From the NCBI GenBank assembly GCA_964640155.1, contig CAZXEQ010000003.1, positions 104,189 to 136,188 on the forward strand: a DNA stretch of 32,000 nt, read 5' to 3'. Positions 2-20,118 of this stretch are shown here, one piece after another; position 1 is the stretch's first letter; the number at the start of each line of letters is the position of its first letter. The notes under the pieces are model-generated. The model saw only the letters and a program-made list of their open reading frames with translations. It searched no databases and was not told where the DNA came from. Both the position numbers and the translations under genes were made by a program. Origin of the DNA: an uncultured bacterium (GTDB taxonomy: Bacteria; Auribacterota; JACPWU01).

Positions 2-1000
2 CTACATCCACTAAGAGCCTTAGGAGTGCTTTCAGATGGGCGTATTGTGGCGGGTGGAACATGGGGGAAAATGACAGTTTATAATCCTAGTGATCCTAAG
101 GATGAAGGAGAAAGCTTAAGCGGTTATGATGGGACGATTCATGATATTCAAGTTCTTCCAGATGATTCCATTGTTGTCGTAGGCGCTGGAGGATATGTTA
201 AAAAGTTTGAACTCAAAGCCGGGTCAACTCCGCAATCTTTGGGTCGATATTATCAGTATGATGGTAGACAAATTATTTATAAGACAAGGCGTTTATCCAA
301 TGGCCATTATGTAGTTGTTGGAGAAGGTGGGGCTATTAAAATTTGTGATCCCAATTATCCAGACAGTGAACCTATTCTGGTCGGCCATTATGGAAAAGAT
401 GTTCACGCTCTTGAAATTTTGCCGGACGATACCATTGTAGTGGGTGGAGATGGAGGAGAAATTTTAGCTTTTGAACCCAAAGAAAATGCAAAACCTCATA
501 AATTTGGAAATTATGGGAATGATATTAACATGATTCGCTATTCACCTGCGGATGGAAAGATTTTGATAGGTGGAAGAAATGGAGTGTTAGCGTTTATTGA
601 AAAAGAGATGGTAGGAGTGATGTGCAGTGAAAAAGATTTCGTAAGCCCTATGGGTAAAAAATATTCTTTAGATCAAGTTTCTACAGATCAAGCCAAAGTG
701 TTCATTCCAATTCCTCATGTCACCGATGAAAATTTCTCAAGTGCAGTCACTCGCTTGCAAGCTGAGATTAAAACAGCAGAAGGGGCTGAAAAGAAGAGAT
801 TAGCTGAGGTTCTCATGCATGTTTTGAGGAAAGGGAAACCTGCCCAAAGAAAAGATGGATCCCCGATAGATACACTCGGGGATGACAAACACTCTGTACC
901 ACTGTCATTCCCGAAGGCTTTTATCGGGAATCCATTAGAAGATAAAAAATGGATTCAGTCCCAACAAAAGAAAGAAGAGCTAGGAGTGGGAGATGTTTTC
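2..1000 (+). repeat. Super-repeat module 1 (partial): 5 visible propeller blades plus linker 1, ending at GDVF
   Basis: Blades follow the pattern [AV]L.VL.DG.[IL]V.GG..G.[IL].[IVF][YWF][DN]P, e.g. VLSDGRIVAGGTWGKMTVYNP and ALEILPDDTIVVGGDGGEILAFEP. Linker 1 contains ...TDENFSSAVTRLQAEI... and ends LGVGDVF (GDVF at 989-1000). Confidence 0.75.
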
Positions 1001-4000
1001 AAGACTGAAGGGGTGTTTGTAGAAAGAGTTTCTATATCAGACCGATCACGCACAATAACAACTCAAGCTGTCTTACCCGATGGACGTATTGCTTATGGTT
1101 TTGCAGATGGGTGGGTTGAATTGTGGGATCCTAAGAAACCCCATTTGGGATTTAAAAGAATAGGACAATATGCTGTAGGAAGAGGCAATCAGGAAATCAC
1201 GGTTTTAAAAGTTGTGGCAGGAAAATTATTAATTGCTGGGAAGGCTGGATATCTTGAAGTGTGGGATCCGGAACAGCCTACTCAAAAACCTTGGTGTTTG
1301 GGAGATTACAAAGAAGAAATTTATGCGATTGAAGAATTAGATGGGGAAATTTTTGTCGGTGGGAAAGGAGCAGTTATTCGATATTGGACTTTGGAAGATT
1401 TAAAAAATAAAAAAGAGATTCAGGGAGAAGTTTTGGGACAGTATGGGCATGAATTTAGCAGTGTTTTTAGTTTTCTTGTTGTGGATGGAAAACTTGTAAT
1501 AGGGGGAGGTGTTCAACTAGAATTTTGGGATTCACAAGAGCCAGAGAAAAAAATTCAAAGTACAGCAATGCATGAAGGAGCCACACACGCTTTGCAATAT
1601 TTAGATGGGAAAATTGTTGCTCTTGATTCAAGTGGGCATATCCGTTATTGGGATAAATCTTCTTTGTATGCTCAAGAATCCCAAGTCCCTTATCCTATTG
1701 GAGAGTATGGTATGAAAGCTGAAGCAATGAAGGTTTTGGATGGGAAGTTGTATGTGGGAGGATATGGAGGAGAACTTAAAGTATGGGATCCAGAGAGCTC
1801 ACGAAAAGGTCTGCACAATATATTTCAGTATCAAAATGATGAAGGAGCAAAACCCGGAACAATGAATTATATTACAACTATTTCATATCTTGAAATAGTA
1901 AACGGTCGTTTGTCTATCATAGGCTCCTCTAACGGTGTTGGTGGGGTTACTCTCTTAGAATTTTCTCCAACCGGTGTGGTGAATAGCAAGAATACTTTTA
2001 GATCTCTAAAATCAGGAGTTGAACATCCCCTGTCAAAAATTTCTTCTGAAGAAGTGACCGTTTTAACCCCAGCTCCTCAAGTGGATCATGAAAATCTATC
2101 TAAAGAGGTTGAATCTCGCCAAATGAAAATGAGAACGCTGCAGGAGCAGGATTTTAAAGGAAGAACAGATTTGGCATTGGAGTTGGCCTATATTGCGAGA
2201 GAACATGGGGATAAGGCAGAGTGGATTGAGATAGAAACAAAGAAGGAAGATTTGAAAGTAGGAGAAATATTTGAAGCAGAAGTTTGTGCGGGGATAGAAA
2301 GACAGTTTTTACATCCATATCCAGGTAAAATACGTGCTCAGGCGCTTCTTCCTAATGGAGAGTTGGTGGTAGGAGGGGAAAGAGGAGAGTTGTGGATTTA
2401 CAACACTGGAGACCTTAATGCAATCCCAAGAAAGTTTAAATTTCGTTATCCGGCAGAAATTCATGCCATTAAAGTTTTAAAAGATGGACGTGTGATTGTG
2501 GCCGGGAAAGCTGTTGATTATATAAGCAAAGTATGGATTTATGATCCTATTCATACCGACGCAAGACCTATTCAAATTAAACATTATTCTGGAGGAGATG
2601 TGTATGCTCTTGAGCTTTTGAATAATAGTTTGGTTGCCATTCAAGAGAAAAATGAAATTAAAATTTATGATCCAGACAAACCAGATCAGGAGGCTAAAAA
2701 GTTTTCTTCTCCTTGTGCAGGTGGTGCTGAGATCATGAGATTGTTGAAAAATGGTTTATTAGCTGTTGGCAAGGGAGCGTCAGGAGGGGATGTTGAAATT
2801 TTTGATCCTGCTCATCTGGAAAAACCTTCTAAAGAGTTTGTTTATCGCTATGGAGATGTTGCTGCCATTGAATCTCTCAATGAGAAAGAATTAGCTGTTG
2901 CAGGATTGACAACGGGAGGATTTGGAAAAATAAAAATTTATAATCTTGAAAATTACGACGCAGAACCCCAAGAATTTTCTTTTCCTTATCCTGGACAAGT
3001 TTATGCTCTTCAAGCATGGGGGGATGATTATTTGGTTGCAGCAGGAAGTTCTGGTGTTGTTCTTCTCTATGATAGATGGGATTTAAAGAAGGATCCTGTT
3101 GAATTAGGACATCTAGATATAGAAGAAAAACAAAAACTCAAAAGAATCATTTTTTCATTACAAGTTTCACCTGAAGGACAACTATCGGTGGCAGGTGGCA
3201 ATGGAATCGTAAAAATTTTTGATTTAAAAAATAGAGGTATTGTCAGAGATCAAAACTCTTTTGTCTCTATAGCTACCGGAAAAGTTCATCCTCTAGACAG
3301 TGTTGTGTCGGACGCTGTAACTGCTCGCTCTATTTTGCCTTCCATTAATCCTGAAAATCTTGCTGATGAAATAAAACGTCGAGAAAATGAGATACGCACT
3401 ACAAATGATGAGAGAGAAAAAACAAGATTGGCCAAAGAAATAGAATTTTTGGTTAAAAAATATGGAAAAGAAATGAAATGGTTTGAAATGGAATCAGAGA
3501 AAGAAAAACTGAGAGAGGGTGATATTTTTAAAACGGAAGTAATGAATAAAACATTTCTTGATCCGGACGGTATTGGTTGTGAGGGTGTTGCCTTGCCTAA
3601 TGGTCAAATAGTGATAATAAAGCTTAGAGAATTAAGATTTTATAATCCTAATCACCCTGAAGCGCCTATAAAGACAATAAAAACAGAAAAAGCAATAAAC
3701 AGGATTGAGCTCTCAGCAAATGGGAATCTTGTTCTTTATGAGGCAGGAGACGTTATTGAAATTTATGATCCCATCCAGTACACCCGCTTAAACTTAATAC
3801 AGTTTCCCGGGAGTGCAGATGTTGATGATTTGCAATATTTGCCTGACGAAAGATTAATAGTTCGTGAGAGAAGAGGGGATATTTTAATTTATGATCTTCA
3901 AAATATTGAAAGCGAACCCTATCATTTGAAAAGAGGATATCCATTTTCTTCCGCCACGCAGGTTTTGCCGAATGGGCAGCTTTTGGTTAGAGAGAATAAA

Positions 4001-7000
4001 AAATTAAGGCTATATCAGTTACCTTCTAGAGAGGTGATGAGAGCGCGCGTCGAAAGCATGTTAGCCTGGCACGCATCCAAATGGAAGACACCCATGCCTG
4101 AATGGGATGACTCACTCACAGAATTAGGTAAGGATGATTCTATGATGGCATGTGTTATTTTACCTAATGGCAATATTGCTATAGGTACATATGAAGGACA
4201 GATCAAAATTTATGATATTCAAAATTTAAAAAAAGGGGATGTGCCTCCTCCACCTACGAGATTTGCTTATTTCAAAGGCAAAATTATAGAAATGGCCTTG
4301 TTGTCTCCTACACGTTTAGTTGTCGCTAGAGAAAATGGTTTATTGGAAATGTATGATTTAACTCGACCTGACTTACCTCCTAAACCTCTAGGGAATTTTG
4401 GCGGTGAAATACTTTCCCTTTCCGTGTTGAAGGATGGGAGGTTGATGGTTACGGGCGAGGGAGGAAAAGTCGAATTTCTGGAATTCAGTATAACCGGGAT
4501 TCTATTGCGAGATAAGACGTTTCGTTCTTTTGCAACAGGGCAGACTTATGATGTGAGCAATATCGTTTCTGACGCTGTGATGACGTTGCATCCAATACCC
4601 TACATAGACCCTGAAAATTGGAAAGAAGAAGTAGAAAAACGCATTCATGAAATGAAATTGGCTCAAAGTGAACATGAAAAGAAAAGATGGGGTTTGGAAG
4701 CAGTGCATATTGTTAGAGAACATGCAGACAAAATGGAATGCGATAAGAAAGATCTTAAGCCCGGTGATGTATTTGAGATGAGAGCCATGATTCAGCAAAA
4801 AAATGATTCAAAAGACACGGTTTTTACCCAAGCGATTCTTCCAGATGGGCGTGTGGTATATGGTGATGAAGGAGAATTAAAAATTTATCATCCAGATGCT
4901 CCTCATGAATTATTCCAATCTATTCCGTTCTCTCAATTTGACTCTGTCCAGGATTTGCAAGTTGTTGAAAACAAACTTTATATGATAGATCGAAATGCGA
5001 ATCCCTATCTTTATCTTTATGATTTTTCTGAATCAGGAAAGGGAGTTCAAAGAGTAAAGCACGAGTTTAATAATGGAAAAATCTATGGTGTTTGGTCTCT
5101 GAATGGAAAGATTTATGTGGCGAATGATAAAGGAGAAATTTATGTTTGTGATTTCTCCGAAGGTCCACTTAAATTTAAACCTTTGGAAAATGGCAAAACA
5201 GAGATGTTTGTAGACTCTATGCAATGGTTGAATGGAAAGCTTTATGTGAGTGGACATACGGAAGATGGATCAATGGTAGCTATCAGTATGGGTTTAACTA
5301 CAACATACAGACATGTGAAAGTATATGATCCTGATCATCCTCAACAAGGATTTCGAGATATTAAAGTTATGGGCAAGAATGATGTTTCTTTTTCAAATTT
5401 ACAAGTTTTAGATGGGAAAATTTATATGGGAGTCTCTGGCAAAGGATTGACAGTCTTTGATCCTCAAAAACCAGATGATGGATTTTTGCTTTTGAATGGA
5501 TGCGAATATCGTCATTCAATCAGACATGTACGCGTTATGAATGGAAAACTTGTAATGGCTGGAGAAAAAGAAATTTTGATTTATGATCATAAAAATCCTT
5601 CTCTGGGACTTCAAAAGTTAGCTGAAATTACAGAGTTTATTTTTAGCTTAGAGGTATATGACAATACAAGAATTGCTGTAGGGTTAGGTAATCAACAGAT
5701 TCTCTTAAAAATAGATGCGATTGGTATGGTGATGGAGGGTGAAAAGTTTGTAGATGTGGAAAGTGGTAGAGAGTATGCATTACAGGATGTTTGTGGGGAA
5801 CGTGTAGCGGTACATTTGTCTATACCTGCGATTACATCTGAAAACTTTGTGGATGAGGTGAAGAGACGGCAAGCGCAGATGGTGACAGAATCGGATGAAA
5901 GAGAAAGAAGGTGTTTGGCGGAGGAGTTGAAGAGGGTTTTAGGGAAAGATTTTAGTGAAAAGGGATGGACTCCAGAAGAGAAAGTAAAAGAGGCTTTGAT
6001 GCCAGGAGATGTGTTTAAAGTAGATGTAATTGCGAAGACATTGATTGAAGGAGATGGAGTAGATATTTGGACGGGTATTGTTTTGAAAGATGGTCGAGTG
6101 GCTGTCGCAAAAGGAGATAAAGTATTTATTCATAACCCACAAAAACCGGAGGCTCACCCCATAGAGATTCCAGCTACTCATTTGGTCAGGGCGATAGAAG
6201 AGTTACCTGATGGTCGGCTTGTTGTTTCAGGGGTGTCAGAAATGGTGACAATACACAATACTCTCACACCAAATCGCTATGTTCAGTTTACGCATCTTTA
6301 TGGGGATGAAGTTAATGCCATTAAACTTTTACCCAATGATCTTTTGGCTGTAGCTGGAAGAAGTGGAAAAATTCTTATCTATGATCTCAAAGATTTAACA
6401 AGAAGGCCTTACGAATTAAAGAAAGATGATAATCGAACCATTTTCGTCTTAGAGGTTTTACCCAATGGAACTCTTTTTGTCGCGGACTACATGGGAAGGG
6501 CAAGTATTTATTCAATTCCAGGCCAAGAAGTTTTTAATCAGCAGTCGATGGAGTCTCAAACTACACCAGATTATTTAATTGCTGAGTTAGAAACTTATGG
6601 GATACCAAAATTGGGAGGTTTAGAGTGCACATCCATTCACTCTTGCGCGCTTTTACCAGATGGAACTCTAGCACTGGGAGGAGATGGTGGGGAGATTTTT
6701 ATTTATGATGTTTCAAAAGTTAGAAAAGGTGAGAGGCCGCCGAAACCTAAAAGACTGATAAATTTTGGTGGCAATATTAGAGCGATGACTTATTTATCTC
6801 CACATCATCTTGTTGTGGCTGGAGCAAGTGGTGCAGTAAAGATTTATAATTTAAACCATCCAGAACTTCCTCCTCGAGAAATATTTAGTTATGGAAATTG
6901 GGTTAAGACATTGAAAGTATTGGAAGATGGTAGGTTATTGATAGCAGGTTTTGGAGGGGAAGCCGTGATTTTAGAATTAAACGTGTTGGGACTAATGACA

Positions 7001-10000
7001 GGGGATAAAACTTTCGAATCTCTTCAGACAGGGGAGAGTTATCGATTGGATGATGTTCAAAGTTCAAAGGTTCAGAGATTAGAGGTGAAGGAAACAGTTT
7101 CTAGAAATGTGGTGTCATCGCGAGTCCCCCGACGTAGTATCGGGGGACGTGGCGATCTCGTAGATGGGATTGCTTCGTCAGCCGATAAATCGGCTTCACT
7201 CGCAATGACGGAGTCAGAGCAAAAAACTAAAATCACAGAAGCTTTAGATGCTCCATTCACTCCAAAATATCCTAGCCTACCTTTTTATTTTGCTTTAGGT
7301 GAGGATGGAATTGTTTATCTCAATTATCAGGGACGATGGTATCCGACGAAGCATAAAGCAGTCACCAGTCGCCAGTCTTCAGTCGTCAGTGAAAACAACA
7401 GTGAGACGATTTATTATGAAACTGTCATTCCGGCGAAGGCCGGAATCCAAACCTCTCTGGATCCCGGATCGCGCTCGCATTTAGCTCGCTTGTCCGGGAT
7501 GACCAAACAAAAAGTTCGACTTCTGCAGCTTTCTGACATTGTGCATCCATTGGAAAGAATGGATTCCCGATTGAAACCTTCGGGAATGACAGGAGGAGAA
7601 CGGACACTTATCCCTCGGGATTTTTTGATGGAGACAGAAGTGTTGAAGGGTGTAGAGGCTTCTGTTTTGAAGGCGTTTCAAAGAGGTTGGGCTGTTGATT
7701 TAGAAGGTGGACCGGGTGGCGGAAAAACAAGTATGGCCCGTGAAGTGGCTCTTCTTCTGGGACTTCCTTCCTATGTTTTTCAAATGCATGGTCAAAGGAC
7801 ATTATCAGATTGGATTGGGGGATATAGCGAAGATGGCAAAGGTCATTTAACTAGGAACAATCTTCCCAATGATGAAGGTCATTTCCGACAAGAATTGCTA
7901 GAGGCCATTACGCATGGGGGTGTTTATGTTGTAGATGAGGGCGCCGTTGGAAAAAAAGGACGTGAACTTTTAAATTGGTTGGCTCCATTGTTAAGAGCTT
8001 TAAGGACTCGTGGTGATGGACGTAAAATTTTTCTTCATGAATTTCCAACTTTGGCGAAAGAATTAGGTATAGAAACCCCCCTGGAAATATCTTTAGATTT
8101 TCATTTGGTGATCACGAATAATAAAGCGGGTGAAACTCAAGCCCGTGAAGTGATGAAAAGTGAGGTAGCAACAGAAGTAGTATATGTTGATGTAGATGAA
8201 GATGATGGGCCTGAAACGTTGCAGAGGTTATTCCTTCATTTTACGCAAGATTTAGGGGTTGATGCAACCATAAAAGAAAATCTTGCAAAGCATTTAAGTG
8301 AATTTCATTGGGCTTTGAAAGAGAGAATTGGAAAAGATTTGGGGGTCGATGATAAAGATAGACATTATCTTTCTAAAAGAGAAATTCGTAGGGCTGCACG
8401 TCTGATGCGTTGGGCTCATTCTCAGAACTCGGAAGCGGATCCCGTTTTTGATTTTTATGTATCTTTAAGAATTGCCTATGAATCCATGTTTACTCATGCT
8501 TGGGAAAAAGATGAGGTTGAGAGAATTTTAAGAGAAAAAATTGAGAATATAGAGTCGGGCAGTTATGAGCGTGTGACCAAGAAATTTGACACTTTAAAGG
8601 AAAAAGCATTTGGTAAAACCGTCAGATCTAAAATTGTGACAGGCCCGGAATTAGAAGAGGCTTTTTTAACAAAAATGAGTATGGAGGCCGGAGAACCGGT
8701 GCTTCTTTTGGGGGAATTAGGGGCACGTGTTTCAGATGTTGTTCGTCGAGTCTCTGAAGAATTAAATGCAGAAGTAAATATTATTGATGCAGATCCTCAA
8801 CAATCTCGTCAGGAAATTCTGGGAGGGCCTTTCCCAGATGTTCGACAAGGAAGTAGTAAAAATATTGCACATATCTTGGGTAAGTTGGTTCAGCATTTGA
8901 TGACCAAAGAACAGATGGAAGCTTTAGAAAGTGCAGGAGAAAAACTACACCCTCAAGTTTTGTGGATTCGAAATATTGATTTATGGAGTGAAGATTTAAG
9001 AACCGCCTTAAATGGATTTTTGGAGGATGGATATATTCGTTTAGAAAAAGGTGACGGTACGATAGAGACTTATTATCGTCCCTCTCATGTTCACATCATT
9101 GCAGACATGGGTTCAGAGTCCATACAAGATTTTTCAAGCGCCTTTTTTAATCGCTGGGTGAAAATAGGAATTTCTAGAGAGAATCCTCCTGAAGACTGGA
9201 TTTATTCCAAGCCAGAGGTTTTGGGTATGCTGAGCAAGAAAGCAGAAAAACAGGCGGAACAGTTGATTGTTGCCGTTAGGGATGCAAAAGTTCTTTTGCC
9301 GATGGAGGGAGGTTTTTATCGTTTTAATCCAGAGCTTAATTTGGAAAATTTTCCTCAAAGTCTCAAAGGCGAAAAAATTTATACTCAATTCTTGAGATCT
9401 TTAAAAACTAAAAATCAACTTTCTGATTTTGAAAAAGTATTGGTGAATCGTTTTGGCATGAGCCTTCGAGAAGCGGAGGACTTGACCCGATTGTATGTTT
9501 CTTTGATGGATATTGATTCAGCTCAAGGGGCGCAGCGCTGGAAGGGAGAAGCCCATTATGGTTTTGGCCCCACTTTGTTCTATGCTTTAGCAGAATCGAT
9601 TCAAATGGCCAAACGTGAAGATTCTAAAATTTTAGCTTTAGAAAGACAATTAAGAGAACAGTATGACGTAAATTTTGAACATGTTTTGATTCATGGACCT
9701 CCTCCGGGTTCTTCAACAGATGCAATCGATCTTTATAAAGCTTATATTTCTGCTTTAAAGAAAATGATGGCAGAAGAAATTTTAAGAATTATTGGTACAA
9801 GATTAAAACCTTTGGATCGTCCTGATTTTGAACAACTTCTTCATTCAACATTAGATTTGGAAGTTCCTCCTGGGCTCAATACTTCTGTTCATACCACGAC
9901 GGGTACACTGGAAGGTCAGGTTACTCGTATCGGCAATGTTGCTCTTCAGGCTAGAGAAGGGGCTAAAGGCCCTCTAGAAGTTTCTAAAGATCATCGTGTT

Positions 10001-13000
10001 AGGTACGGTGGCCAATCTGTAGAAGAGGGCTTGGCTGTTCTGGCTCGTGCTTCACAGCTTGGAAAGGCTGTAGCTTTGGTGGGTGAACCGGGTGTCGTAA
10101 AAACTACTTTAACGGGACATTTTGCAGAAATTACAGGGAGGAAATATTATAAGTTTCAATCTCATAAAAAAAGTCGTGTGGAAAATCTTACATTTGAAGT
10201 AGAGCAGGAAGCAGATGGGACTTTCCATAAGAAAATTCAAGAGCTTTATCAATATCTTCGCGAAGGAAATGTAGTCATTGATATTGATGAAGCGAATGCT
10301 CAACCCGAAATTCTTTGGCTTTTAGGTCCTGTCTTAAGAGGTGAAGAATGGATTTATCCCATTTTTCCAGGAGAGCCTCCTTTTAAAATAGGCAGAGGAG
10401 TACAACTTGTATTTACCTATAATCCAGCTCATTTTTCAGGTCGAAGTGAAATGGATAAGCGCATTTTAGATTTAATGATTGTGGCATGGCTTGAACCTCC
10501 TAAAAAAGAAAATAAACCAGCTATTACTGAAACTTTCTGGGGTGTTTGGGCTGAAAAAGTTGCAAAAGTTGAAGAAGATAAGTTTCCTCAAAGATTTGAA
10601 GTTCATGTACCACCGGTTGAAATGCCGGCTGATTTAGCAAAAGATGTTGGTTATGATCATGCAAGGATTCATGAAACGATTACTTCTTTTGATCAAACTA
10701 CGAATCAAACAGATAAAGTAGACATTTTCTTGAAAGTTTTACCTGAATACTTTTTAGCTTTGGCTAATCGGGATGGAGCTAGATATGATCAAGACATGCT
10801 CCGTATGGCTGCTATTTTAGATGGATTTTTAGCAAGGTCAGGTCAGGAAAGCAGAATCGTTAGAGATCTTGAAGTTCTACAAAAAGAATATCATCGCTCT
10901 TCTCCCGACAAAACTCGATTACGCTACGGCATATTAGAATTTAGAAAACATTTTTTAAAATTTGATCGGCATTTGATTATTTTTATGTTCACTCCCAAAA
11001 ATCGTACAGTTCCATTTTTGCGCATTTATCCCAATAAGATTTTAGATCGAATCACCCTTTCACATAAAGAAGGATGGGAAACCAGTGGAGAAGCTCTGGT
11101 GATTGAAGGACATGGATTGGAGAAAGGAAATAAGATGGGCTATTTTGATGGAGAATATGCTCTCGTCAATACCCCTAAGACAGGAGGCGTAAAGCATATT
11201 CAAACAGAATGGACGGCCCACCATGAATTAGGGCATCGAAATGATCAAGCCCCGCATAAAACAATTCCTAAAAATATTGAAATGAACTCTATGCTCAGTC
11301 CACTTATGCATTCTAGAGAAAAGAAAAATTATATTGAGGAAGAATTGGCTGGTTGGGTGTCGAGTGGACAGAACAATTCTTATTATACTCAAGCATCAAA
11401 AGGAATATTGAATGGGCTTGTACAAAGATGGTGGGAGTTGAATAAGACAACAGGGAGACCTCCTCAAATTGATGATGTATTTGCAGATGCTGATATTAAA
11501 GCAGTATTAGATTTGGTTCTCACGATGGATGAAGCGACATTAGAAAGTTTAGCTCTTTATCTTTACGATCATCCTAGATATCTAGAAAGCGGCCAAAAAG
11601 GGGCTTATAAACAACGCGTGTCTACGGGAACTGCAGAGCAGGGGGGTGGAGAAGAAGAAATTATGGAAGGAGTGGATGGAGAAATTGAAGTCGATGTTGA
11701 AATGGTGGAAGGAGGAGCCACTCCGGAAGTAAATGTATCAAACCCAGAAGGTTCGGATACGGTTCAAGAAACGAGTGGTGAAAATCTAACTCCTGAAATG
11801 GAAGCTCGTCGCCAAAAAGATTTAGAAAAACAACATCGCAAAACTGAAGACCTGAAGAAAAAGTTAGAAGAAGAAACAAAAGCCTCTGGAACGGAATACG
11901 ATCAAATGATCATGGGAGGACAAGGTCAGGCTGAAAGCATTTTTGACAGGATATTACGCGCGTTTCGATCTAAACGTAAAACAATTACCATTCGTTTAAG
12001 ATCCGGTTTAGAAGTAGATCCTATTGCTCATATGCTCAGACTCTATAATCGATTTATCAAACGTGAAGAAGTTTTTGACATGCAAACACATGCTGTTTCT
12101 GTTTTGATGGATTTTAGCGGAAGTTTGGCTCCTTTTAAGAAACAGATAGCCTATGCGGTGCGGGCGATTGGAGATAATTTTTGGAAATTGAAATGGGCAG
12201 CTTCTCGCCATTTTTATTTTGATTTATCGTTTTATACAGGAGCGGATCCCGTTACTATGATGGAAATGGGCAGGCTTTATTCAGAATCAGAATGGAAAGA
12301 TAATTGTGTCAAAATGGGAAGACAAATCGGAGATGGAGACAATAATTTACTCAATGCTCTGAGCAAAAAATTGAAGGATTTCGTAGGGTCAGATGTAAAA
12401 GCGGATGTACGCCGGGCAAAGCTTAAAACTTTGATTTTGTTTACGGACGGTCAAGATACTGCAATTATCGGTGGTGATAAACCCATACCTTCAAGAGAAT
12501 TTCAACAGGAGTTAAATCGGTATCGCGCTTTAGGAATAGAAATTTTTGCGATCGGATTTGGAGCAGGGGCAAAGCCTGTTGAAGCTTTTCATGGAAAAGG
12601 ACAACATTTTATCAAGATCGGTGCCCAGCGTCCTTATGATGTACCGGAAGTCATTGCAAAAATTATGGAAGCAAGATCGCGTGGATTAGGAATGATTCCT
12701 GATGGAGATGTCACTCATTTTTTTGGAATTGATGAGAAGGGTGCTCCTCAACTTACGCCAGAAGAAACACAAGCATCACCACAGTCTTTTTCTTCGTCTT
12801 CGCCAAGCTCTACTGGGGGAGGCTCATTTGCACGCATGCTTCCTCCTGAAGCCAGTGTTGCGCAAATGGTTGTAAGTGGTTCAAAAGTCATAGAATCTTT
12901 GCCAGGTTCAGAACGCTCAGGAGCCACTCGTGTTATCGTTGATGCCATAGCTGAAAAAATGAGAGCTGCTTCGGATTATGCTCATAGTGTTGTAAGGGGA

Positions 13001-13063
13001 CTGCCTTCGACTCAATCTAGAAAAGTATCCTCAAGAGAAGTTGTTTTAGATCAGGCTGCTTAG
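2..13063 (+). CDS. Giant multidomain protein, 5'-partial (>4,350 aa visible): >=6 tandem WD40-like 7-bladed beta-propeller modules, 3 AAA_5 (MoxR/midasin-type) ATPase modules plus one vestigial P-loop, acidic linker, C-terminal VWA/MIDAS domain
   Basis: One frame is open from nt 2 to the TAG at 13061-13063. The track start (GTG at 26) lies inside a propeller blade: nt 2-25 translate LHPLRALG, continuing into VLSDGRIVAGG, which matches the blade consensus. The ORF therefore continues upstream of the window. Motifs read from the translation: Walker A GGPGGGKT (7706-7729), Walker B VYVVDE (7922-7939), Walker A GEPGVVKT (10082-10105), Walker B VVIDIDEA (10271-10294), MIDAS DFSGS (10110+2000 region, exactly 12110-12124). 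Confidence 0.9.
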   Translation, partial: LHPLRALGVLSDGRIVAGGTWGKMTVYNPSDPKDEGESLSGYDGTIHDIQVLPDDSIVVVGAGGYVKKFELKAGSTPQSLGRYYQYDGRQIIYKTRRLSNGHYVVVGEGGAIKICDPNYPDSEPILVGHYGKDVHALEILPDDTIVVGGDGGEILAFEPKENAKPHKFGNYGNDINMIRYSPADGKILIGGRNGVLAFIEKEMVGVMCSEKDFVSPMGKKYSLDQVSTDQAKVFIPIPHVTDENFSSAVTRLQAEIKTAEGAEKKRLAEVLMHVLRKGKPAQRKDGSPIDTLGDDKHSVPLSFPKAFIGNPLEDKKWIQSQQKKEELGVGDVFKTEGVFVERVSISDRSRTITTQAVLPDGRIAYGFADGWVELWDPKKPHLGFKRIGQYAVGRGNQEITVLKVVAGKLLIAGKAGYLEVWDPEQPTQKPWCLGDYKEEIYAIEELDGEIFVGGKGAVIRYWTLEDLKNKKEIQGEVLGQYGHEFSSVFSFLVVDGKLVIGGGVQLEFWDSQEPEKKIQSTAMHEGATHALQYLDGKIVALDSSGHIRYWDKSSLYAQESQVPYPIGEYGMKAEAMKVLDGKLYVGGYGGELKVWDPESSRKGLHNIFQYQNDEGAKPGTMNYITTISYLEIVNGRLSIIGSSNGVGGVTLLEFSPTGVVNSKNTFRSLKSGVEHPLSKISSEEVTVLTPAPQVDHENLSKEVESRQMKMRTLQEQDFKGRTDLALELAYIAREHGDKAEWIEIETKKEDLKVGEIFEAEVCAGIERQFLHPYPGKIRAQALLPNGELVVGGERGELWIYNTGDLNAIPRKFKFRYPAEIHAIKVLKDGRVIVAGKAVDYISKVWIYDPIHTDARPIQIKHYSGGDVYALELLNNSLVAIQEKNEIKIYDPDKPDQEAKKFSSPCAGGAEIMRLLKNGLLAVGKGASGGDVEIFDPAHLEKPSKEFVYRYGDVAAIESLNEKELAVAGLTTGGFGKIKIYNLENYDAEPQEFSFPYPGQVYALQAWGDDYLVAAGSSGVVLLYDRWDLKKDPVELGHLDIEEKQKLKRIIFSLQVSPEGQLSVAGGNGIVKIFDLKNRGIVRDQNSFVSIATGKVHPLDSVVSDAVTARSILPSINPENLADEIKRRENEIRTTNDEREKTRLAKEIEFLVKKYGKEMKWFEMESEKEKLREGDIFKTEVMNKTFLDPDGIGCEGVALPNGQIVIIKLRELRFYNPNHPEAPIKTIKTEKAINRIELSANGNLVLYEAGDVIEIYDPIQYTRLNLIQFPGSADVDDLQYLPDERLIVRERRGDILIYDLQNIESEPYHLKRGYPFSSATQVLPNGQLLVRENKKLRLYQLPSREVMRARVESMLAWHASKWKTPMPEWDDSLTELGKDDSMMACVILPNGNIAIGTYEGQIKIYDIQNLKKGDVPPPPTRFAYFKGKIIEMALLSPTRLVVARENGLLEMYDLTRPDLPPKPLGNFGGEILSLSVLKDGRLMVTGEGGKVEFLEFSITGILLRDKTFRSFATGQTYDVSNIVSDAVMTLHPIPYIDPENWKEEVEKRIHEMKLAQSEHEKKRWGLEAVHIVREHADKMECDKKDLKPGDVFEMRAMIQQKNDSKDTVFTQAILPDGRVVYGDEGELKIYHPDAPHELFQSIPFSQFDSVQDLQVVENKLYMIDRNANPYLYLYDFSESGKGVQRVKHEFNNGKIYGVWSLNGKIYVANDKGEIYVCDFSEGPLKFKPLENGKTEMFVDSMQWLNGKLYVSGHTEDGSMVAISMGLTTTYRHVKVYDPDHPQQGFRDIKVMGKNDVSFSNLQVLDGKIYMGVSGKGLTVFDPQKPDDGFLLLNGCEYRHSIRHVRVMNGKLVMAGEKEILIYDHKNPSLGLQKLAEITEFIFSLEVYDNTRIAVGLGNQQILLKIDAIGMVMEGEKFVDVESGREYALQDVCGERVAVHLSIPAITSENFVDEVKRRQAQMVTESDERERRCLAEELKRVLGKDFSEKGWTPEEKVKEALMPGDVFKVDVIAKTLIEGDGVDIWTGIVLKDGRVAVAKGDKVFIHNPQKPEAHPIEIPATHLVRAIEELPDGRLVVSGVSEMVTIHNTLTPNRYVQFTHLYGDEVNAIKLLPNDLLAVAGRSGKILIYDLKDLTRRPYELKKDDNRTIFVLEVLPNGTLFVADYMGRASIYSIPGQEVFNQQSMESQTTPDYLIAELETYGIPKLGGLECTSIHSCALLPDGTLALGGDGGEIFIYDVSKVRKGERPPKPKRLINFGGNIRAMTYLSPHHLVVAGASGAVKIYNLNHPELPPREIFSYGNWVKTLKVLEDGRLLIAGFGGEAVILELNVLGLMTGDKTFESLQTGESYRLDDVQSSKVQRLEVKETVSRNVVSSRVPRRSIGGRGDLVDGIASSADKSASLAMTESEQKTKITEALDAPFTPKYPSLPFYFALGEDGIVYLNYQGRWYPTKHKAVTSRQSSVVSENNSETIYYETVIPAKAGIQTSLDPGSRSHLARLSGMTKQKVRLLQLSDIVHPLERMDSRLKPSGMTGGERTLIPRDFLMETEVLKGVEASVLKAFQRGWAVDLEGGPGGGKTSMAREVALLLGLPSYVFQMHGQRTLSDWIGGYSEDGKGHLTRNNLPNDEGHFRQELLEAITHGGVYVVDEGAVGKKGRELLNWLAPLLRALRTRGDGRKIFLHEFPTLAKELGIETPLEISLDFHLVITNNKAGETQAREVMKSEVATEVVYVDVDEDDGPETLQRLFLHFTQDLGVDATIKENLAKHLSEFHWALKERIGKDLGVDDKDRHYLSKREIRRAARLMRWAHSQNSEADPVFDFYVSLRIAYESMFTHAWEKDEVERILREKIENIESGSYERVTKKFDTLKEKAFGKTVRSKIVTGPELEEAFLTKMSMEAGEPVLLLGELGARVSDVVRRVSEELNAEVNIIDADPQQSRQEILGGPFPDVRQGSSKNIAHILGKLVQHLMTKEQMEALESAGEKLHPQVLWIRNIDLWSEDLRTALNGFLEDGYIRLEKGDGTIETYYRPSHVHIIADMGSESIQDFSSAFFNRWVKIGISRENPPEDWIYSKPEVLGMLSKKAEKQAEQLIVAVRDAKVLLPMEGGFYRFNPELNLENFPQSLKGEKIYTQFLRSLKTKNQLSDFEKVLVNRFGMSLREAEDLTRLYVSLMDIDSAQGAQRWKGEAHYGFGPTLFYALAESIQMAKREDSKILALERQLREQYDVNFEHVLIHGPPPGSSTDAIDLYKAYISALKKMMAEEILRIIGTRLKPLDRPDFEQLLHSTLDLEVPPGLNTSVHTTTGTLEGQVTRIGNVALQAREGAKGPLEVSKDHRVRYGGQSVEEGLAVLARASQLGKAVALVGEPGVVKTTLTGHFAEITGRKYYKFQSHKKSRVENLTFEVEQEADGTFHKKIQELYQYLREGNVVIDIDEANAQPEILWLLGPVLRGEEWIYPIFPGEPPFKIGRGVQLVFTYNPAHFSGRSEMDKRILDLMIVAWLEPPKKENKPAITETFWGVWAEKVAKVEEDKFPQRFEVHVPPVEMPADLAKDVGYDHARIHETITSFDQTTNQTDKVDIFLKVLPEYFLALANRDGARYDQDMLRMAAILDGFLARSGQESRIVRDLEVLQKEYHRSSPDKTRLRYGILEFRKHFLKFDRHLIIFMFTPKNRTVPFLRIYPNKILDRITLSHKEGWETSGEALVIEGHGLEKGNKMGYFDGEYALVNTPKTGGVKHIQTEWTAHHELGHRNDQAPHKTIPKNIEMNSMLSPLMHSREKKNYIEEELAGWVSSGQNNSYYTQASKGILNGLVQRWWELNKTTGRPPQIDDVFADADIKAVLDLVLTMDEATLESLALYLYDHPRYLESGQKGAYKQRVSTGTAEQGGGEEEIMEGVDGEIEVDVEMVEGGATPEVNVSNPEGSDTVQETSGENLTPEMEARRQKDLEKQHRKTEDLKKKLEEETKASGTEYDQMIMGGQGQAESIFDRILRAFRSKRKTITIRLRSGLEVDPIAHMLRLYNRFIKREEVFDMQTHAVSVLMDFSGSLAPFKKQIAYAVRAIGDNFWKLKWAASRHFYFDLSFYTGADPVTMMEMGRLYSESEWKDNCVKMGRQIGDGDNNLLNALSKKLKDFVGSDVKADVRRAKLKTLILFTDGQDTAIIGGDKPIPSREFQQELNRYRALGIEIFAIGFGAGAKPVEAFHGKGQHFIKIGAQRPYDVPEVIAKIMEARSRGLGMIPDGDVTHFFGIDEKGAPQLTPEETQASPQSFSSSSPSSTGGGSFARMLPPEASVAQMVVSGSKVIESLPGSERSGATRVIVDAIAEKMRAASDYAHSVVRGLPSTQSRKVSSREVVLDQAA
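859..931. repeat. Two 8-bp-stem palindromic hairpin units lying in frame inside linker 1 of the giant ORF
   Basis: ATCCCCGA(859-866)/TCGGGGAT(876-883) and ATTCCCGA(907-914)/TCGGGAAT(924-931), both perfect inverted repeats read directly. They encode ...SPIDTLGDDKHSVPLSFPKAFIGNP..., a ~30-aa stretch with no counterpart in linkers 2-5. Confidence 0.7.
1001..2272 (+). repeat. Super-repeat module 2: 7-bladed WD40-like propeller plus linker 2
   Basis: Seven blades, each ending in W/Y-D-like dipeptides (VELWDP, LEVWDP, IRYWT, LEFWDS, IRYWDK, LKVWDP, TLLEF). Linker: GVVNSKNTFRSLKSG...DHENLSKEVESRQ...LKVGEIF (GEIF at 2261-2272). Confidence 0.75.
2273..3529 (+). repeat. Super-repeat module 3: 7-bladed propeller plus linker 3
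   Basis: Seven blades (LLPNGELVVGGERGELWIYNT ... SPEGQLSVAGGNGIVKIFDL). Linker: GIVRDQNSFVSIATG...NPENLADEIKRRE...LREGDIF (GDIF at 3518-3529). Confidence 0.75.
3530..4774 (+). repeat. Super-repeat module 4: 7-bladed propeller with a ~40-aa insert between blades 4 and 5, plus linker 4
   Basis: Blades LPNGQIVII..FYNP ... LKDGRLMVTGEGGKVEFLEF. Insert: PSREVMRARVESMLAWHASKWKTPMPEWDDSLTELGKDDSMM. Linker: GILLRDKTFRSFATG...DPENWKEEVEKRI...LKPGDVF (GDVF at 4763-4774). Confidence 0.75.
4775..6016 (+). repeat. Super-repeat module 5: 7-bladed propeller plus linker 5
   Basis: Blades with an [DN]GK[IL][YV] signature as in module 2 (LNGKIYVANDKGEIYVCDF, LDGKIYMGVSGKGLTVFDP, MNGKLVMAGEKEILIYDH). Linker: GMVMEGEKFVDVESG...TSENFVDEVKRRQ...LMPGDVF (GDVF at 6005-6016). 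Confidence 0.75.
6017..7110 (+). repeat. Super-repeat module 6: 7-bladed propeller with a blade 4/5 insert as in module 4, and a truncated linker 6
   Basis: Blades LKDGRVAVAKGDKVFIHNP ... LEDGRLLIAGFGGEAVILEL. Its last three blades align with module 4 (KGERPPKPKRLINFGGNIRAMTYLSPHHLVVAG vs KGDVPPPPTRFAYFKGKIIEMALLSPTRLVVAR). Linker 6 starts normally (GLMTGDKTFESLQTG). The helical ...EN...E..R...GD[VI]F half is missing and the hairpin-rich spacer stands in its place. Confidence 0.7.
7125..7587. repeat. Cluster of five palindromic hairpin units (same stem family) lying in frame between the propeller array and AAA-1
   Basis: Perfect stems: TCCCCCGA(7125-7132)/TCGGGGGA(7140-7147); ATTGC..AGCCGAT/ATCGGCT..GCAAT (7169-7206); ATTCCGGC(7427-7434)/GCCGGAAT(7439-7446); ATCCCGGA(7461-7468)/TCCGGGAT(7493-7500); ATTCCCGA(7563-7570)/TCGGGAAT(7580-7587). 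The region is visibly more GC-rich than its surroundings and is open in several frames on both strands (track ORFs 7072-7260-, 7299-7484+, 7425-7607-, 7481-7681-). Confidence 0.7.
7640..8420 (+). other. AAA_5-type ATPase module 1 (intact Walker A/B) of the giant protein
   Basis: GGPGGGKT (7706-7729), hhhhDE VYVVDEG (7922-7939), sensor-1-like VITNN, and a downstream lid helix LSKREIRRAARL. These match the MoxR/CbbQ/midasin AAA_5 pattern. Confidence 0.75.
8695..9175 (+). other. AAA-like module 2 with degenerate nucleotide-binding motifs
   Basis: PVLLLGELGARVS replaces Walker A (no GK[ST]). VLWIRNIDLWSEDL replaces Walker B. A C-terminal SSAFFNRWVKI resembles the AAA_5 '..A...RF..i' end. Probably a non-hydrolysing module. 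Confidence 0.5.
9692..9718 (+). other. Vestigial P-loop-like motif HGPPPGSST (possible remnant of another AAA module)
   Basis: VLIHGPPPGSSTD resembles hhhhGPPGxGKT but lacks the Lys. No Walker B is recognisable downstream. Confidence 0.25.
10028..10503 (+). other. AAA_5-type ATPase module 3 (intact Walker A/B)
   Basis: AVALVGEPGVVKTTL (Walker A 10082-10105), VVIDIDEAN (Walker B 10271-10294), sensor-1-like LVFTYNP, and terminal DKRILDLMIVAWLEPP. Confidence 0.75.
11641..11885 (+). other. Acidic D/E-rich segment followed by a K/E-rich helix, immediately upstream of the VWA domain
   Basis: GGGEEEIMEGVDGEIEVDVEMVEGGATPEVNVSNPEGSDTVQETSGENLTPEMEARRQKDLEKQHRKTEDLKKKLEEETK, read directly from the translation. 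Confidence 0.8.
12085..12680 (+). other. C-terminal von Willebrand factor A (VWA) domain with a MIDAS motif
   Basis: VSVLMDFSGSL (DxSxS at 12110-12124), LILFTDGQDT (~12431-12460) and IFAIGFGAG match the canonical VWA strand/MIDAS pattern. Confidence 0.8.
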
Positions 13064-17094: not shown

Positions 17095-20000
17095 ATGAAT
17101 ACTCAGATGAGTTGTTTGTATAAAAAAATTGTATGCCTTTTGGTGTTTCCTCTTGTTTTAACTCAAGCGATGGGCTCTCCTTCTCTGGAGGAAAATTCTC
17201 AAGAAAATTCAACGAGCACAGACTTAAGTGAAATATATTTCCCTTCGAAAATTGGAGTTGTGACTGATTCCTATCAAAGTACAAAAAATCAAACAACTAT
17301 TTTTTATATCAAGGATATTCATTGCAATCTAGAAGGTCAGCTTAATATTTCTAAAATGATTGAAGAGCTTTCAAAAAAACAGAGAATTCAACTTGTCTTG
17401 GTTGAGGGTGCTCAAGGAAAAGTTCAGACCGATCTCTTGGGCTGTTTCCCAGATTCAAAGATTCGGAAAAAGGTGAGTAGAAAATTTTTGGCGAAAGGTT
17501 TTATCAGTGGGTGTGAATACCTTGCAATTTCAAAATTTAATAAAATTCCTATTCACATCTATGGCATTGAAGATGAGCAACTTTATCTTAAGAATTATTA
17601 TTTTTTTAAAGAAGTTTATGAAAAAGCAAGTGATACTAATCAATTTATGAACGTTTCGAAGATATTCATTCAAAGGTTAAAGAGAAAAGTTTTTAATAAA
17701 AAGCTTTTGAAAGTCGATCACGATTGGAAGGAGTATCAAGAAGGGAAATTAGCTTTGGTGAAATTTGTTAAGACTCTTTCTCGAGAAGAATGGAATAACC
17801 GTGCGTCTCCTAATCTTGTAAAACTTTTGAAGATTTTATCTGTTATAAATCAGAAGAATCCTTCTCTCTTGGAAAAAGAACATAGATCTTTTATTCAAAG
17901 ATTAAGTCAAATTCTATCTGCCGATCAGACACAAGTTCTTATCAAGTTAATTCTAAAAAAGAGGTTGAGTAAAATTTCAGATGAAGAATATTTTTCAAGA
18001 TTAAAAAATATTCTTCCATCAAATCACATCACAAGACTTCGTAATCAATTTTCTGTTCTTTTTGGGGTTTTTGATTTGCATCGCTTCTTGAAAGAAAAAA
18101 GTGAGAAGTTGGCTTTAGAGTTAGAGGATGCTGTAGATTTATTGTTTGAGAGGCTCGCAAAAACAGAAGAAGAAAAAAATCTACTTAATCTTTCTTTAAA
18201 ATTAGAAACTTTAGAAAAAGCTTTAACATTAACTCTTTCTAGAAAAGAATTTGAGAAAGAAGGTCAAAATTTTGATCTCGATCAGTTTATTCAACATTTA
18301 GAAAGTCTCTATAAAAAGCAAAGCGATAATTTTTCTGTAAATAAAATTGATTTTTTATGGATGAAAAAAATGAAAGGACTTGTTGAATCTGGGAAGTCTT
18401 TTTATCGACTTGCTTTAAAAAGAGAAGATCAAATGGTTCAAAATGCGCTTCAGAAAATAAAAGAGGAAGGTGTACAAAAGGCTATTTTGATTGCTGGAGG
18501 CTTTCATTCTCAGGGGTTGATGGAAAAATTGAAAAAACGAGGTATTTCTTGTATTGCTATAATGCCAATACTAAAAAAGAGAGATGAGGGGCATTTGTAC
18601 TTAGAACGAATGCTGTCTCAAAACATCAACTTAAAGTTTATTCAAAATTTTTCTATTTCTTCTCTTTCAGTTCTAGATCTTCTTTCAGATACAGCTTCTA
18701 ATGATGATGATCGAACAGAATTTTTAAGAAGTTTTTTTCATTATATGGTTACATTTTATGGAGCAGATTCCTTAGATGATGAAGAAACAGTTATTCATCG
18801 ATGGCGGCAACAGGTTATTGCCCTTCATTCAGAATTATTATTAGACTTTAATCAAGTGGTGGAATCTTTATTGTTTTTAGCAAAGACCATTGCTTTGGGT
18901 CAAAGAGAAATTGTGCATGTTTTAAAAGATTCGTTAGGGAATCAAAAGAAAATGTTGCAAATGAAAGTTATTCTTTCGTTTTTGTATCGAGAGCAACTGT
19001 CTGTCTATGATGAGATAAAGTTAAAGATCGATCATCCTAGCCTTATAGCTTATATGACACAATTAGAGGAAAGTCATTACATCACAAATCGATTTGGAGT
19101 TTGGGAGGTTTCAGATGATACAAGAAATGATAGAGATTCTACAGATGTAAGTGCAACAGCTGATCTTTTAGGTGAAGACAATATTCTCGCAGAGAGTGAT
19201 TCAGGTATGGGAGTGGCGTATCGCATTAACGAAGGTCGTGCTATTTCTGAGCGGGAAAGATTAGAAGAAGTTTTTAGTATTCTTTCTAATTTTTGTAAGG
19301 CAAAACCTCGAATTCCATGGATTCAAATACAAACGGATCATCGAGGGAAATATCTTTATTTTTGTGGTTCTCGAATTCTTAGTATAACGCCAAAAACTTT
19401 TTTGAGGGATGCAGCGGTGTCGTTTTTTATCAGAGATGCCGATCATGTGGAAATAAGAAAAGGAGGCGTAAGCTATATTTTAGGAACTACGGGGACGATG
19501 GATATTTTAGAGGATGATATTTCTACCGTTTCTCATGCAAAGACTTTATTGAGAAGACAAGTACAGCGCTTAAGATTAATTCATGAAGATAAAATACAAA
19601 TTAGAAATTATTGGGAAGCGTTTTGCCGTTATTTTCAGGATAAAGCTTCGGAAGGGAGTCCATATCGACATGCAATTGTAGCTTTTTTTATAGATGAGAT
19701 TTTGAAAAATTTAAGTCGACAGGCTCCGCCTGAAATTCTAGGTTATGCCTTAGTGGTTTTAGATCAGCTGAGAGAAAAAATTTTAGAACTCGTAACTGAG
19801 AAAGAAGAGGAGGGGAATTTTGAAAATCAAGCTTCTTTTCGTTATGTCATTCGTTTTTGTGGATATTCCCTTTTAGGTTATACGCAATATCGTTTTTTTA
19901 TTCCTATGGAGTCTTTAGACCAGACCATTGCTCCAATCACTCAAGTAACTGCGACCTTATTAGAATCTCTTTTGAATGAACCACAAATTGCAAGAACTTC

Positions 20001-20118
20001 GTCTGTAGCAGAAATGGCAGTAGCCGAGTTAGGTAGAGGTAGGGCAAACTTTTTTCAATCTGCTCAAAGAGGGTTGATGGAAAGAAGAAGTAGTTCTATT
20101 CTTGAACAAGCAGCTTAA
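17095..20118 (+). CDS. Large secreted/exported protein of unknown function (1007 aa); the N-terminal half has Tiki/TraB/GumN/ChaN-like GxxH-type motifs
   Basis: N-terminal signal-peptide-like MNTQMSCLYKKIVCLLVFPLVLTQAMG. TIFYIKDIHCN...QLVLVEGAQG (~17300-17430) and KAILIAGGFHSQGLMEKLKKRGISCIAI (~18481-18560) resemble the paired '..H' / 'vvvGa.H..G...L...G' motifs of that superfamily. The C-terminal ~500 aa has no recognisable motif except a tail shared with the giant ORF. Confidence 0.7.
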   Translation: MNTQMSCLYKKIVCLLVFPLVLTQAMGSPSLEENSQENSTSTDLSEIYFPSKIGVVTDSYQSTKNQTTIFYIKDIHCNLEGQLNISKMIEELSKKQRIQLVLVEGAQGKVQTDLLGCFPDSKIRKKVSRKFLAKGFISGCEYLAISKFNKIPIHIYGIEDEQLYLKNYYFFKEVYEKASDTNQFMNVSKIFIQRLKRKVFNKKLLKVDHDWKEYQEGKLALVKFVKTLSREEWNNRASPNLVKLLKILSVINQKNPSLLEKEHRSFIQRLSQILSADQTQVLIKLILKKRLSKISDEEYFSRLKNILPSNHITRLRNQFSVLFGVFDLHRFLKEKSEKLALELEDAVDLLFERLAKTEEEKNLLNLSLKLETLEKALTLTLSRKEFEKEGQNFDLDQFIQHLESLYKKQSDNFSVNKIDFLWMKKMKGLVESGKSFYRLALKREDQMVQNALQKIKEEGVQKAILIAGGFHSQGLMEKLKKRGISCIAIMPILKKRDEGHLYLERMLSQNINLKFIQNFSISSLSVLDLLSDTASNDDDRTEFLRSFFHYMVTFYGADSLDDEETVIHRWRQQVIALHSELLLDFNQVVESLLFLAKTIALGQREIVHVLKDSLGNQKKMLQMKVILSFLYREQLSVYDEIKLKIDHPSLIAYMTQLEESHYITNRFGVWEVSDDTRNDRDSTDVSATADLLGEDNILAESDSGMGVAYRINEGRAISERERLEEVFSILSNFCKAKPRIPWIQIQTDHRGKYLYFCGSRILSITPKTFLRDAAVSFFIRDADHVEIRKGGVSYILGTTGTMDILEDDISTVSHAKTLLRRQVQRLRLIHEDKIQIRNYWEAFCRYFQDKASEGSPYRHAIVAFFIDEILKNLSRQAPPEILGYALVVLDQLREKILELVTEKEEEGNFENQASFRYVIRFCGYSLLGYTQYRFFIPMESLDQTIAPITQVTATLLESLLNEPQIARTSSVAEMAVAELGRGRANFFQSAQRGLMERRSSSILEQAA

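Follow-up and report, generated by a model that had tools for sequence, protein, structure and literature searches.

The window and the host gene

The stretch of DNA analysed here, referred to as the window, comprises 32,000 nt from an uncultured bacterium of the Auribacterota (GenBank assembly GCA_964640155.1, contig CAZXEQ010000003.1, positions 104,189 to 136,188). Its left part is occupied by a very large gene for a protein made up of beta-propellers and an ATPase motor. Clusters of small GC-rich palindromes lie inside this gene, at the junction between the propeller arrays and the motor and again in linker 1 of the same protein, and these palindromes are the subject of this report. The host gene is as follows:

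2-13063, + strand, the last 4,345 codons of a gene whose product has 6,910 aa, truncated by the left window edge

The open reading frame (ORF) is listed as 26-13063, but the same frame is open already from base 2 and the gene therefore extends past the left end of the window. An exhaustive protein search recovered the full product, P0007, in which residue 2566 corresponds to window codon 1, and the whole gene is 20.7 kb long. P0007 consists of an N-terminal domain, an AAA domain, six beta-propeller arrays, the junction, an AAA_5/MoxR-type motor and a VWA domain. In the window, Pfam detects a WD40/beta-propeller signal over the first 2,300 codons of the gene, AAA_5 (dynein-related/MoxR-type) ATPase domains, and a weak VWA match near the C-terminus that falls below the Pfam cutoff.

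Hairpins and oriented units

A preliminary description, made from the sequence alone, reported five perfect hairpins at the junction with stems that are variants of AT[TC]CC[CG]G[AC]. All five are present and all are perfect inverted repeats:

arms 7124-7132 and 7140-7148, 9 bp, GTCCCCCGA
arms 7180-7186 and 7189-7195, 7 bp, AGCCGAT
arms 7427-7434 and 7439-7446, 8 bp, ATTCCGGC
arms 7461-7468 and 7493-7500, 8 bp, ATCCCGGA
arms 7563-7570 and 7580-7587, 8 bp, ATTCCCGA

However, only three of the five stems fit the pattern. The 9-bp and 7-bp stems do not; they form the inner hairpins of another element, which is of the TGC type (element A, below). Across the whole window, perfect 8-bp hairpins with at least 50 % GC are confined to the junction cluster and to 859-931, with a single exception at 26866.

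The window was then scanned for units of the TCC type using the pattern GG-[AT…stem of at least 6…AT]-GAC, with composition-matched shuffles as the control. Five oriented TCC units were found (857-886, 904-933, 7424-7448, 7459-7503 and 7561-7590), compared with 0.04 in the shuffles, and the other 19 kb of the window contained none. These five canonical units and two TGC-type units make seven oriented units in all, and every one is inside the host ORF. Each reads GTC-[AT…AT]-C, that is, GTC precedes the palindrome and C follows it. As this gives the units a polarity, we refer to GTCAT…ATCC as a left unit and to GGAT…ATGAC as a right unit. Folded as DNA, the individual units gave free energies of -6.8 to -14.7 kcal/mol (z = -2.2 to -4.6), with perfect stems of 7-9 bp. 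The prediction of RNA folding for 7100-7620, which had been proposed as a check, gave z = -3.4. No terminator-like T-tract was found after any of the hairpins, promoter-like sites were at chance level, and no Rfam family matched the hairpins.

Some of the units are paired. The plan of the resulting composites is GTCAT…ATCC-spacer-GGAT…ATGAC, namely two inverted units around a spacer of 9-10 nt. The earlier inventory of hairpins had missed this pairing, and also the second cluster at 857-933 in the same gene. The elements are listed below.

7114-7209, composite element A (TGC type), 96 nt or 32 codons, peptide (V)VSSRVPRRSIGGRGDLVDGIASSADKSASLAMT
7114-7157, left unit of element A, GTCATCGCGAG…GGCGATC, with the inner 9-bp hairpin at 7124-7148
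7158-7166, spacer of element A, 9 nt
7167-7209, right unit of element A, GGATTGCTTCG…CTCGCAATGAC, with the inner 7-bp hairpin at 7180-7195
7424-7503, composite element B (TCC type, similar to the Neisseria repeat discussed below), 27 codons, peptide VIPAKAGIQTSLDPGSRSHLARLSGMT
7424-7448, left unit of element B, GTCATTCCGGCGAAGGCCGGAATCC, followed by a 10-nt spacer
7459-7503, right unit of element B, GGATCCCGGA-N24-TCCGGGATGAC
7561-7590, - strand (on which GTCAT…ATCC is read), solo unit C, a right unit of 30 nt, GGATTCCCGATTGAAACCTTCGGGAATGAC, peptide (M)DSRLKPSGMT
857-886, - strand, right unit in linker 1, GGATCCCCGATAGATACACTCGGGGATGAC, peptide GSPIDTLGDD
904-933, + strand, left unit in linker 1, GTCATTCCCGAAGGCTTTTATCGGGAATCC, peptide SFPKAFIGNP

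In element A, the outer 12-nt arms (7114-7125 and 7198-7209) are 92 % complementary, and the whole 96 nt folds as DNA at -25.4 kcal/mol (z = -4.7) with its termini paired. In linker 1 the order is reversed, with the right unit preceding the left unit and 17 nt between them.

The peptides quoted in the preliminary description are indeed found in the coding frame. However, the segment is not open in several frames as had been stated. Over 7100-7620 only the coding frame is open, and the other five contain 6-11 stops.

Further peptides of this kind are found in the part of P0007 upstream of the window. Residues 649-677, seen as protein sequence only, form another in-frame TGC-type composite (VIAREADLSADRSNL-VLED-EIASPTARND), and the peptides PPLKLRGV and PPLESRG (residues 576-582 and 1102-1108) resemble the translation of a different palindromic repeat (CCCCTTAA..TTAAGGGG). 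With these, the host gene holds at least five repeat-derived segments. We also note a strong Shine-Dalgarno-like sequence, AGGAGGAG, at 7591-7599 directly after unit C. It encodes GGE and is probably coincidental, as it lies ~29 nt upstream of the conserved Met at 7628, which is too far for a canonical start.

Evidence for insertion into native coding sequence

The GC content of the elements is 0.57 (element A), 0.60 (B), 0.50 (C) and 0.51 (the linker-1 pair), whereas it is 0.40 between A and B (7210-7423), 0.39 between B and C (7504-7560) and 0.395 for the whole gene. The GC anomaly predicted for the junction is thus real, but it is confined to the elements, and the intervening stretches are at the baseline of the gene. 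These stretches, and the start of the motor, contain conserved native features:

7253-7354, + strand, native conserved junction module PFTPKYPSLPFYFALGEDGIVYLNYQGRWYPTKH, between A and B, at baseline GC and not an insertion
7529-7549, + strand, native conserved motif LSDIVHP, between B and C, in a block with a model confidence (pLDDT) of 87 (see below)
7619-7636, + strand, native conserved motif DFLMET, start of the motor

Homologues were identified in three ways. A query with the motor half found P0001, the best homologue, from a Candidatus Aureabacteria metagenome-assembled genome (MAG; 53 % identity), as well as P0002 and P0003-P0005. The exhaustive protein search added P0009, P0010, P0012, P0018, P0021 and P0024. 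A metagenome scan with an alignment of the junction found no close relatives, and only two distant homologues, L122 and L123 (36 % and 32 % identity). P0002, which lacks the propellers and the junction, was left out, and the remaining 12 (P0001, P0003-P0005, P0009, P0010, P0012, P0018, P0021, P0024, L122 and L123) make up the set of junction-bearing homologues. Two further queries gave no match, namely the junction as aa 2150-2800 (by one search route) and a 182-aa element-rich segment at E values up to 10 (344 candidates). With so few candidates, the idea that peptides encoded by the elements swamp the word index was rejected.

All 12 homologues have the post-propeller module, PFxP[RK]Yxxx PFYF…G.V.LN[FY].G….T[RK]H, with little or no variation. 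What follows T[RK]H is also in the same order in all of them: a variable loop (loop 1), L.DI.HP, a short loop (loop 2), DFL[ML]ET and the Walker A motif. The element peptides are absent from all 12, and the position of element A is a gap in every aligned homologue. The lengths of the two loops could be measured in 11 of the 12, as the pattern used did not match P0001. Loop 2 (HP…DFLMET) is 9-13 aa long in these 11 (11 aa in eight of them) and 23 aa in the window, or 12 aa when the 11-aa peptide of element C is taken away. Loop 1 (T.H…L.DI.HP) is 12-31 aa long in the 11 and 58 aa in the window, or 31 aa less the 27-aa peptide of element B. Subtracting the element peptides therefore brings both loops back to normal lengths. 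Loop 1 of P0001 is longer, and was examined for a decayed element; this candidate was dropped, as inspection of the DNA of P0001 showed no palindrome remnant. Compared with its paralogues in the same protein, linkers 2-5, linker 1 has 33 additional aa, and both units fall within this insertion.

P0001 also bears on the proposal that the cluster replaces the helical half of linker 6. This orthologue has the same KTF.S..TG… start, followed directly by the PFYF module, and it lacks the helix although it is free of elements. Homologues that are free of elements likewise have no helix at this place but the conserved junction module, and the proposal was rejected.

An AlphaFold2 model of aa 2359-2838, built from a 5-sequence alignment, had a mean predicted local distance difference test score (pLDDT) of 66.9. 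Values below 50 were obtained for model residues 1-50, 91-136 and 153-165, in which elements A, B and C occupy residues 4-37, 109-135 and 154-164, respectively. The native junction module was modelled as beta strands with a pLDDT of 59-88.

The elements are thus foreign in composition, specific to this lineage, located in variable loops and read through in frame.

Occurrence of the units in other genomes

A set of 185,579 species-representative genomes was scanned for exact matches to GGATTCCCGA-N4-12-TCGGGAATGAC, a pattern that unit C matches exactly. The motif was found in at least 120 loci, compared with ~2-3 expected by chance, as estimated for uniform composition. The matches listed include members of the Nitrospirota, groups of the candidate phyla radiation (CPR), Omnitrophota, Elusimicrobiota, Ignavibacteria, Dehalococcoidia, Campylobacterota, Auribacterota and others.

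For the matches listed, the surrounding 828 kb contained 251 units as recognized by the scanner. The commonest close pairing among them was a left unit, 13-29 nt and a right unit (54 cases, versus 16 with right then left). Units were underrepresented in long ORFs, as 8 % lay inside ORFs of at least 300 aa, which cover 54 % of the bases. TGC-type composites built like element A were seen in L011, L018, L026 and others of these loci, and GTCATYGCGAG occurred 11 times in them compared with ~0.8 expected.

Locus L061 comes from a Dehalococcoidaceae MAG. A left and a right unit enclose a GIY-YIG gene in it (Pfam E = 1.9e-17; 4339-4700, minus strand). GTCATTCCCGCGAAAGCGGGAATCC precedes this gene and its 3' end overlaps GGATTCCCGATCAGGTCGGGAATGAC; the same two ends bound the gene-less composites. 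Among the matches listed, no gene other than GIY-YIG was found to be enclosed by a left and a right unit. The stop codon of the L061 gene is the TGA within GGAATGAC, and there is an in-frame TAA after WYVYILAS, so that the gene may be a pseudogene or the sequence may contain an assembly error. A second small GIY-YIG gene (Pfam E = 2e-17) was seen in L104 (2300-2900), where the repeat around it is another one, GTTCGACAGGCTCACCA[TC]GAACGG. This is a hint that the repeat family paired with a GIY-YIG gene may differ from one such gene to the next.

A different arrangement was seen in L051 (69-1107; Nitrospirales, OZ251550, 1120001-1128000), which contains six copies of the unit that recur with a period of ~206 nt and are nearly identical in their flanks. 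The hairpin is here part of a longer repeat arranged in tandem.

Canonical units with perfect stems were also found in frame in three large ORFs that share 22-38 % identity with one another, namely in L058 (4273-4302; Candidatus Auribacterota MAG), L082 (3817-3882; unclassified MAG) and L095 (2858-2919; Omnitrophota MAG). The peptides are GSPDVTSGDD, VIPEIFNRESISGSPIKTFGDD and CHSCESRNPESGFPITTFGNDN, respectively, and all three are at the same position in the protein, just before a conserved …SLF..HF.FY.LA.KR[DN]E motif. The shared site suggests either recurrent insertion at a hot spot or selection, because a neutral ancient insert should have decayed at such divergence. The family also includes the N-terminal domain of P0007, in which the shared site is free of units.

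Comparison with known repeat systems

The Neisseria Transformation Sequence (NTS), CGTCATTCCCGCGMAVGCGGGAATCYRG, contains the classic dRS3 repeat, ATTCCC-N8-GGGAAT (PMC11893778, Nat Commun 2025). The same paper defines a degenerate Ssn-related motif (SRM) that is spread across phyla, with the pattern HGTCWYN(0-2)YYVSBRHN(0-5)WNVSBRGN(0-2)RNCYNB. SsnA, a small GIY-YIG nuclease of ~94 aa, binds these hairpins as single-stranded DNA only and cuts a few nucleotides upstream of the hairpin, and ssnA genes are typically flanked by repeats in a layout like that of an insertion sequence (IS) (PMC11893778). SsnA cleavage depends critically on the three nucleotides that precede the palindrome, and SsnA binding on the C that follows it (PMC11893778, section 8). 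The dRS3 repeat is also the target of a phage recombinase, and an analogy to REP/RAYT systems has been drawn (PMC11893778).

The window units resemble the NTS and SRM in several respects. They are oriented hairpins of 25-45 nt with GTC-AT…AT-C(C) flanks and a stem core of ATTCC(C/G)G, and the motif occurs in many phyla. The end units around the small GIY-YIG gene of L061 correspond to the NTS-ssnA-NTS layout. Of the 28 nt of the NTS consensus, 24 are matched by the stretch 7423-7450. Two of the four mismatches compensate each other, in that a C:G pair of the stem is exchanged for G:C. With one substitution permitted and loops of up to 9 nt in length, the SRM pattern was matched by four of the five TCC units, but by neither of the two TGC units. 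The differences are that the fourth stem pair of the window units is A:T and not S:S, that their loops are 9-24 nt long rather than 5 or fewer, and that the TGC-type units fall outside the SRM pattern altogether. In addition, searches of the text of PMC11893778 gave no mention of in-frame insertion into proteins. Members of the NTS/SRM group are recognized by tens to hundreds of copies per genome, by a cognate small GIY-YIG (cd10448) ssn gene that is typically flanked by units, and by the strand-specific cutting of single-stranded DNA by the Ssn nuclease. Judged by their sequence, the window units appear NTS/SRM-like, and we make no claim of membership.

Rickettsia palindromic elements (RPEs) are ~100-150 bp long, form families of their own and are found in frame in unrelated protein-coding genes (Ogata et al. 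2000 and 2002, summarized in PMC10969869). In-frame palindromic insertions are already established for RPEs and for some MITEs, small transposable elements with inverted repeats (PMC10969869). Like RPEs, the window palindromes are in frame and are read through as extra peptide segments at positions compatible with the fold. They are set apart by size and host, as the units are 25-45 nt long (composites 80-96 nt) with other ends, and the best homologue of the host protein comes from Candidatus Aureabacteria and not from Rickettsia. The bacterial MITEs that give rise to in-frame fusions (Correia, ERIC, BOX and cyanobacterial elements; PMC10969869) are likewise small and non-autonomous, have terminal inverted repeats and can add peptides within ORFs. 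Terminal inverted repeats (GTCAT…ATGAC) are present here too, but the window units are much shorter than typical MITEs and are not known to have a parent IS that encodes a DDE transposase.

REP, REPIN and BIME sequences share with the window units the form of short GC-rich palindromes, often in inverted pairs with a short spacer and mostly intergenic. They are thought to be mobilized as single-stranded hairpins, and REP elements are rarely found inside genes. Typical RAYT-associated REPs begin with GTAG, whereas the window units begin with GTCA, and the gene associated with the latter, where one was seen (L061), encodes a GIY-YIG protein rather than a Y1 transposase.

Origin of the elements

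We consider it very likely that the junction segment is native coding sequence into which NTS/SRM-like palindromic repeats were inserted in frame, in the manner of RPEs, and tolerated in loops. The preliminary description had already recognized small palindromic repeats inserted in frame and named RPEs as the precedent. This part of it is borne out by the deviating composition, by the occurrence of the motif elsewhere and by the orthologue alignment that it had called for, in which all 12 junction-bearing homologues lack the element segments. By sequence and architecture, the elements belong to a widespread, mostly intergenic family of hairpin repeats.

Under this explanation, three small GC-rich palindromic elements would have entered variable loops of the conserved propeller-motor junction, and linker 1 would be a fourth site. 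The elements may spread as single-stranded hairpin DNA with the help of an enzyme of the Ssn type, or one of similar function, whose gene would lie elsewhere in the genome. The composites may derive from a unit-nuclease-unit cassette, without its gene, or the same machinery may have spread them as copies. Most copies would land between genes. Those in the 20.7-kb gene would be the survivors of purifying selection, with the frame kept, no stop introduced and a position in surface loops or linkers. Such survivorship explains the position at domain boundaries without any function. Their translation products would now be loop peptides, modelled as disordered and without demonstrated function. The perfection of the stems suggests that the elements arrived recently or that copies were homogenized.

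Several points weigh against this explanation. An exact fit to the SRM pattern as published was not found in the window, no GIY-YIG gene was found there, and every unit in it lies in one gene. Reading the flanks of the elements revealed no target-site duplication, although no systematic search for one was run. All the stems are still perfect, while a very old neutral insertion should decay, so that either the insertions are recent or the hairpins are maintained. The low pLDDT values at the elements are in part an artefact, as the corresponding alignment columns are filled by the query alone. Finally, the mobility of the elements in this lineage is something that we infer.

The perfect stems could also be accounted for if the hairpins had been domesticated, either to pause the ribosome or RNA polymerase for co-translational folding or as a flexible spacer between propeller and motor, as had been suggested. 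The RNA fold of the region, the inter-domain position of both sites in the window, and the canonical units found at one protein position in the divergent L058, L082 and L095 ORFs, which come from different lineages, would fit with this. However, the homologues manage without elements, with loops of 9-13 and 12-31 aa sufficing; the same motifs are mostly intergenic elsewhere; and the hairpins have neither the T-tracts of terminators nor a match in Rfam. Placement in loops and linkers is what is expected from the survivorship of random insertions, and the element peptides, though read through, are modelled as disordered with a pLDDT below 50. No evidence of selection was found, and we regard domestication as unlikely. 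It is also improbable, to a similar degree, that machinery other than Ssn nucleases spreads or targets the units. Such machinery could be a RAYT (IS200/IS605 family) or a recombinase of the IS110/Piv type, which uses dRS3 as an integration site in Neisseria. The composites of inverted units do resemble REPINs and BIMEs, element A folds with its termini paired, and dRS3 is targeted by a phage recombinase (PMC11893778). On the other hand, the first bases of the units are not those of RAYT-associated REPs, the window contains no transposase gene, and the only gene enclosed by a left and a right unit among the matches listed is the GIY-YIG gene.

The preliminary description also raised the possibility that the cluster marks the recombination scar of a fusion between a propeller-array gene and a MoxR-VWA gene. 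P0002 (locus L124, 3625-9927; 42 % identity) is a stand-alone homologue with only the motor and VWA. It starts at the Met of (DF)LMET, equivalent to window position 7628, and follows an unrelated histidine kinase gene, the locus adjoining histidine-kinase genes. A fusion or fission has therefore taken place in this family near the junction boundary. However, the 12 propeller-bearing homologues that lack the elements, down to the 32-36 % identity of L122 and L123, have the same junction module, so the propeller-motor junction is older than the elements. Moreover, the second pair of units, in linker 1, is 6 kb from any fusion point. The fusion-scar proposal is refuted by the conserved junction module, and we give it very little weight. 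An assembly error or chimera is even harder to credit. The local shift in composition is all that speaks for one, while the 13-kb ORF is open through all of the elements, the full-length P0007 contains the same peptides, and Logan contig SRR8893623_62659, an independent assembly, is 100 % identical over 5734-26885, which includes the junction.

If the elements are insertions of NTS/SRM-like repeats, as we favour, what is new is modest: a family of this type also inserts in frame into protein, at no fewer than four sites of one giant protein from an uncultivated lineage, and the ends of a GIY-YIG cassette are mirrored in its composite structure. The RPEs of Rickettsia are the best-known palindromes that code for protein, and this adds to them a distinct repeat family, NTS/SRM-like and much more widely distributed. 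A GIY-YIG gene elsewhere is flanked by the same two ends as the composites have. This suggests that the repeats associated with Ssn act as mobile cassettes, from which gene-less forms derive. A bolder proposal, which we put forward tentatively and think rather less likely than its negation, is that composites with Ssn-type hairpin ends are small, active mobile DNA that spans phyla, is mobilized in the form of single-stranded hairpins by GIY-YIG Ssn enzymes and repeatedly writes peptides into the loops of giant multi-domain proteins. If so, the shared position in L058, L082 and L095 would point to targeted insertion or to selection for the insert. For annotation, the peptides VIPAKAGIQ, SGMT, LAMT and ARND inside large proteins signal inserted repeats and not domains, and clusters of GC-rich hairpins at domain boundaries should not be taken for fusion scars.

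Other features of the window

A Logan contig break lies at ~4091, and a hairpin unit was considered as its cause. The idea was dropped, as only a chance-level GGGATGAC is present there. The remaining genes of the window are ordinary bacterial housekeeping genes. Among them is an ORF of 1,007 aa (17095-20118) for which Pfam gave no match, and which is called as 992 aa in the Logan contig.

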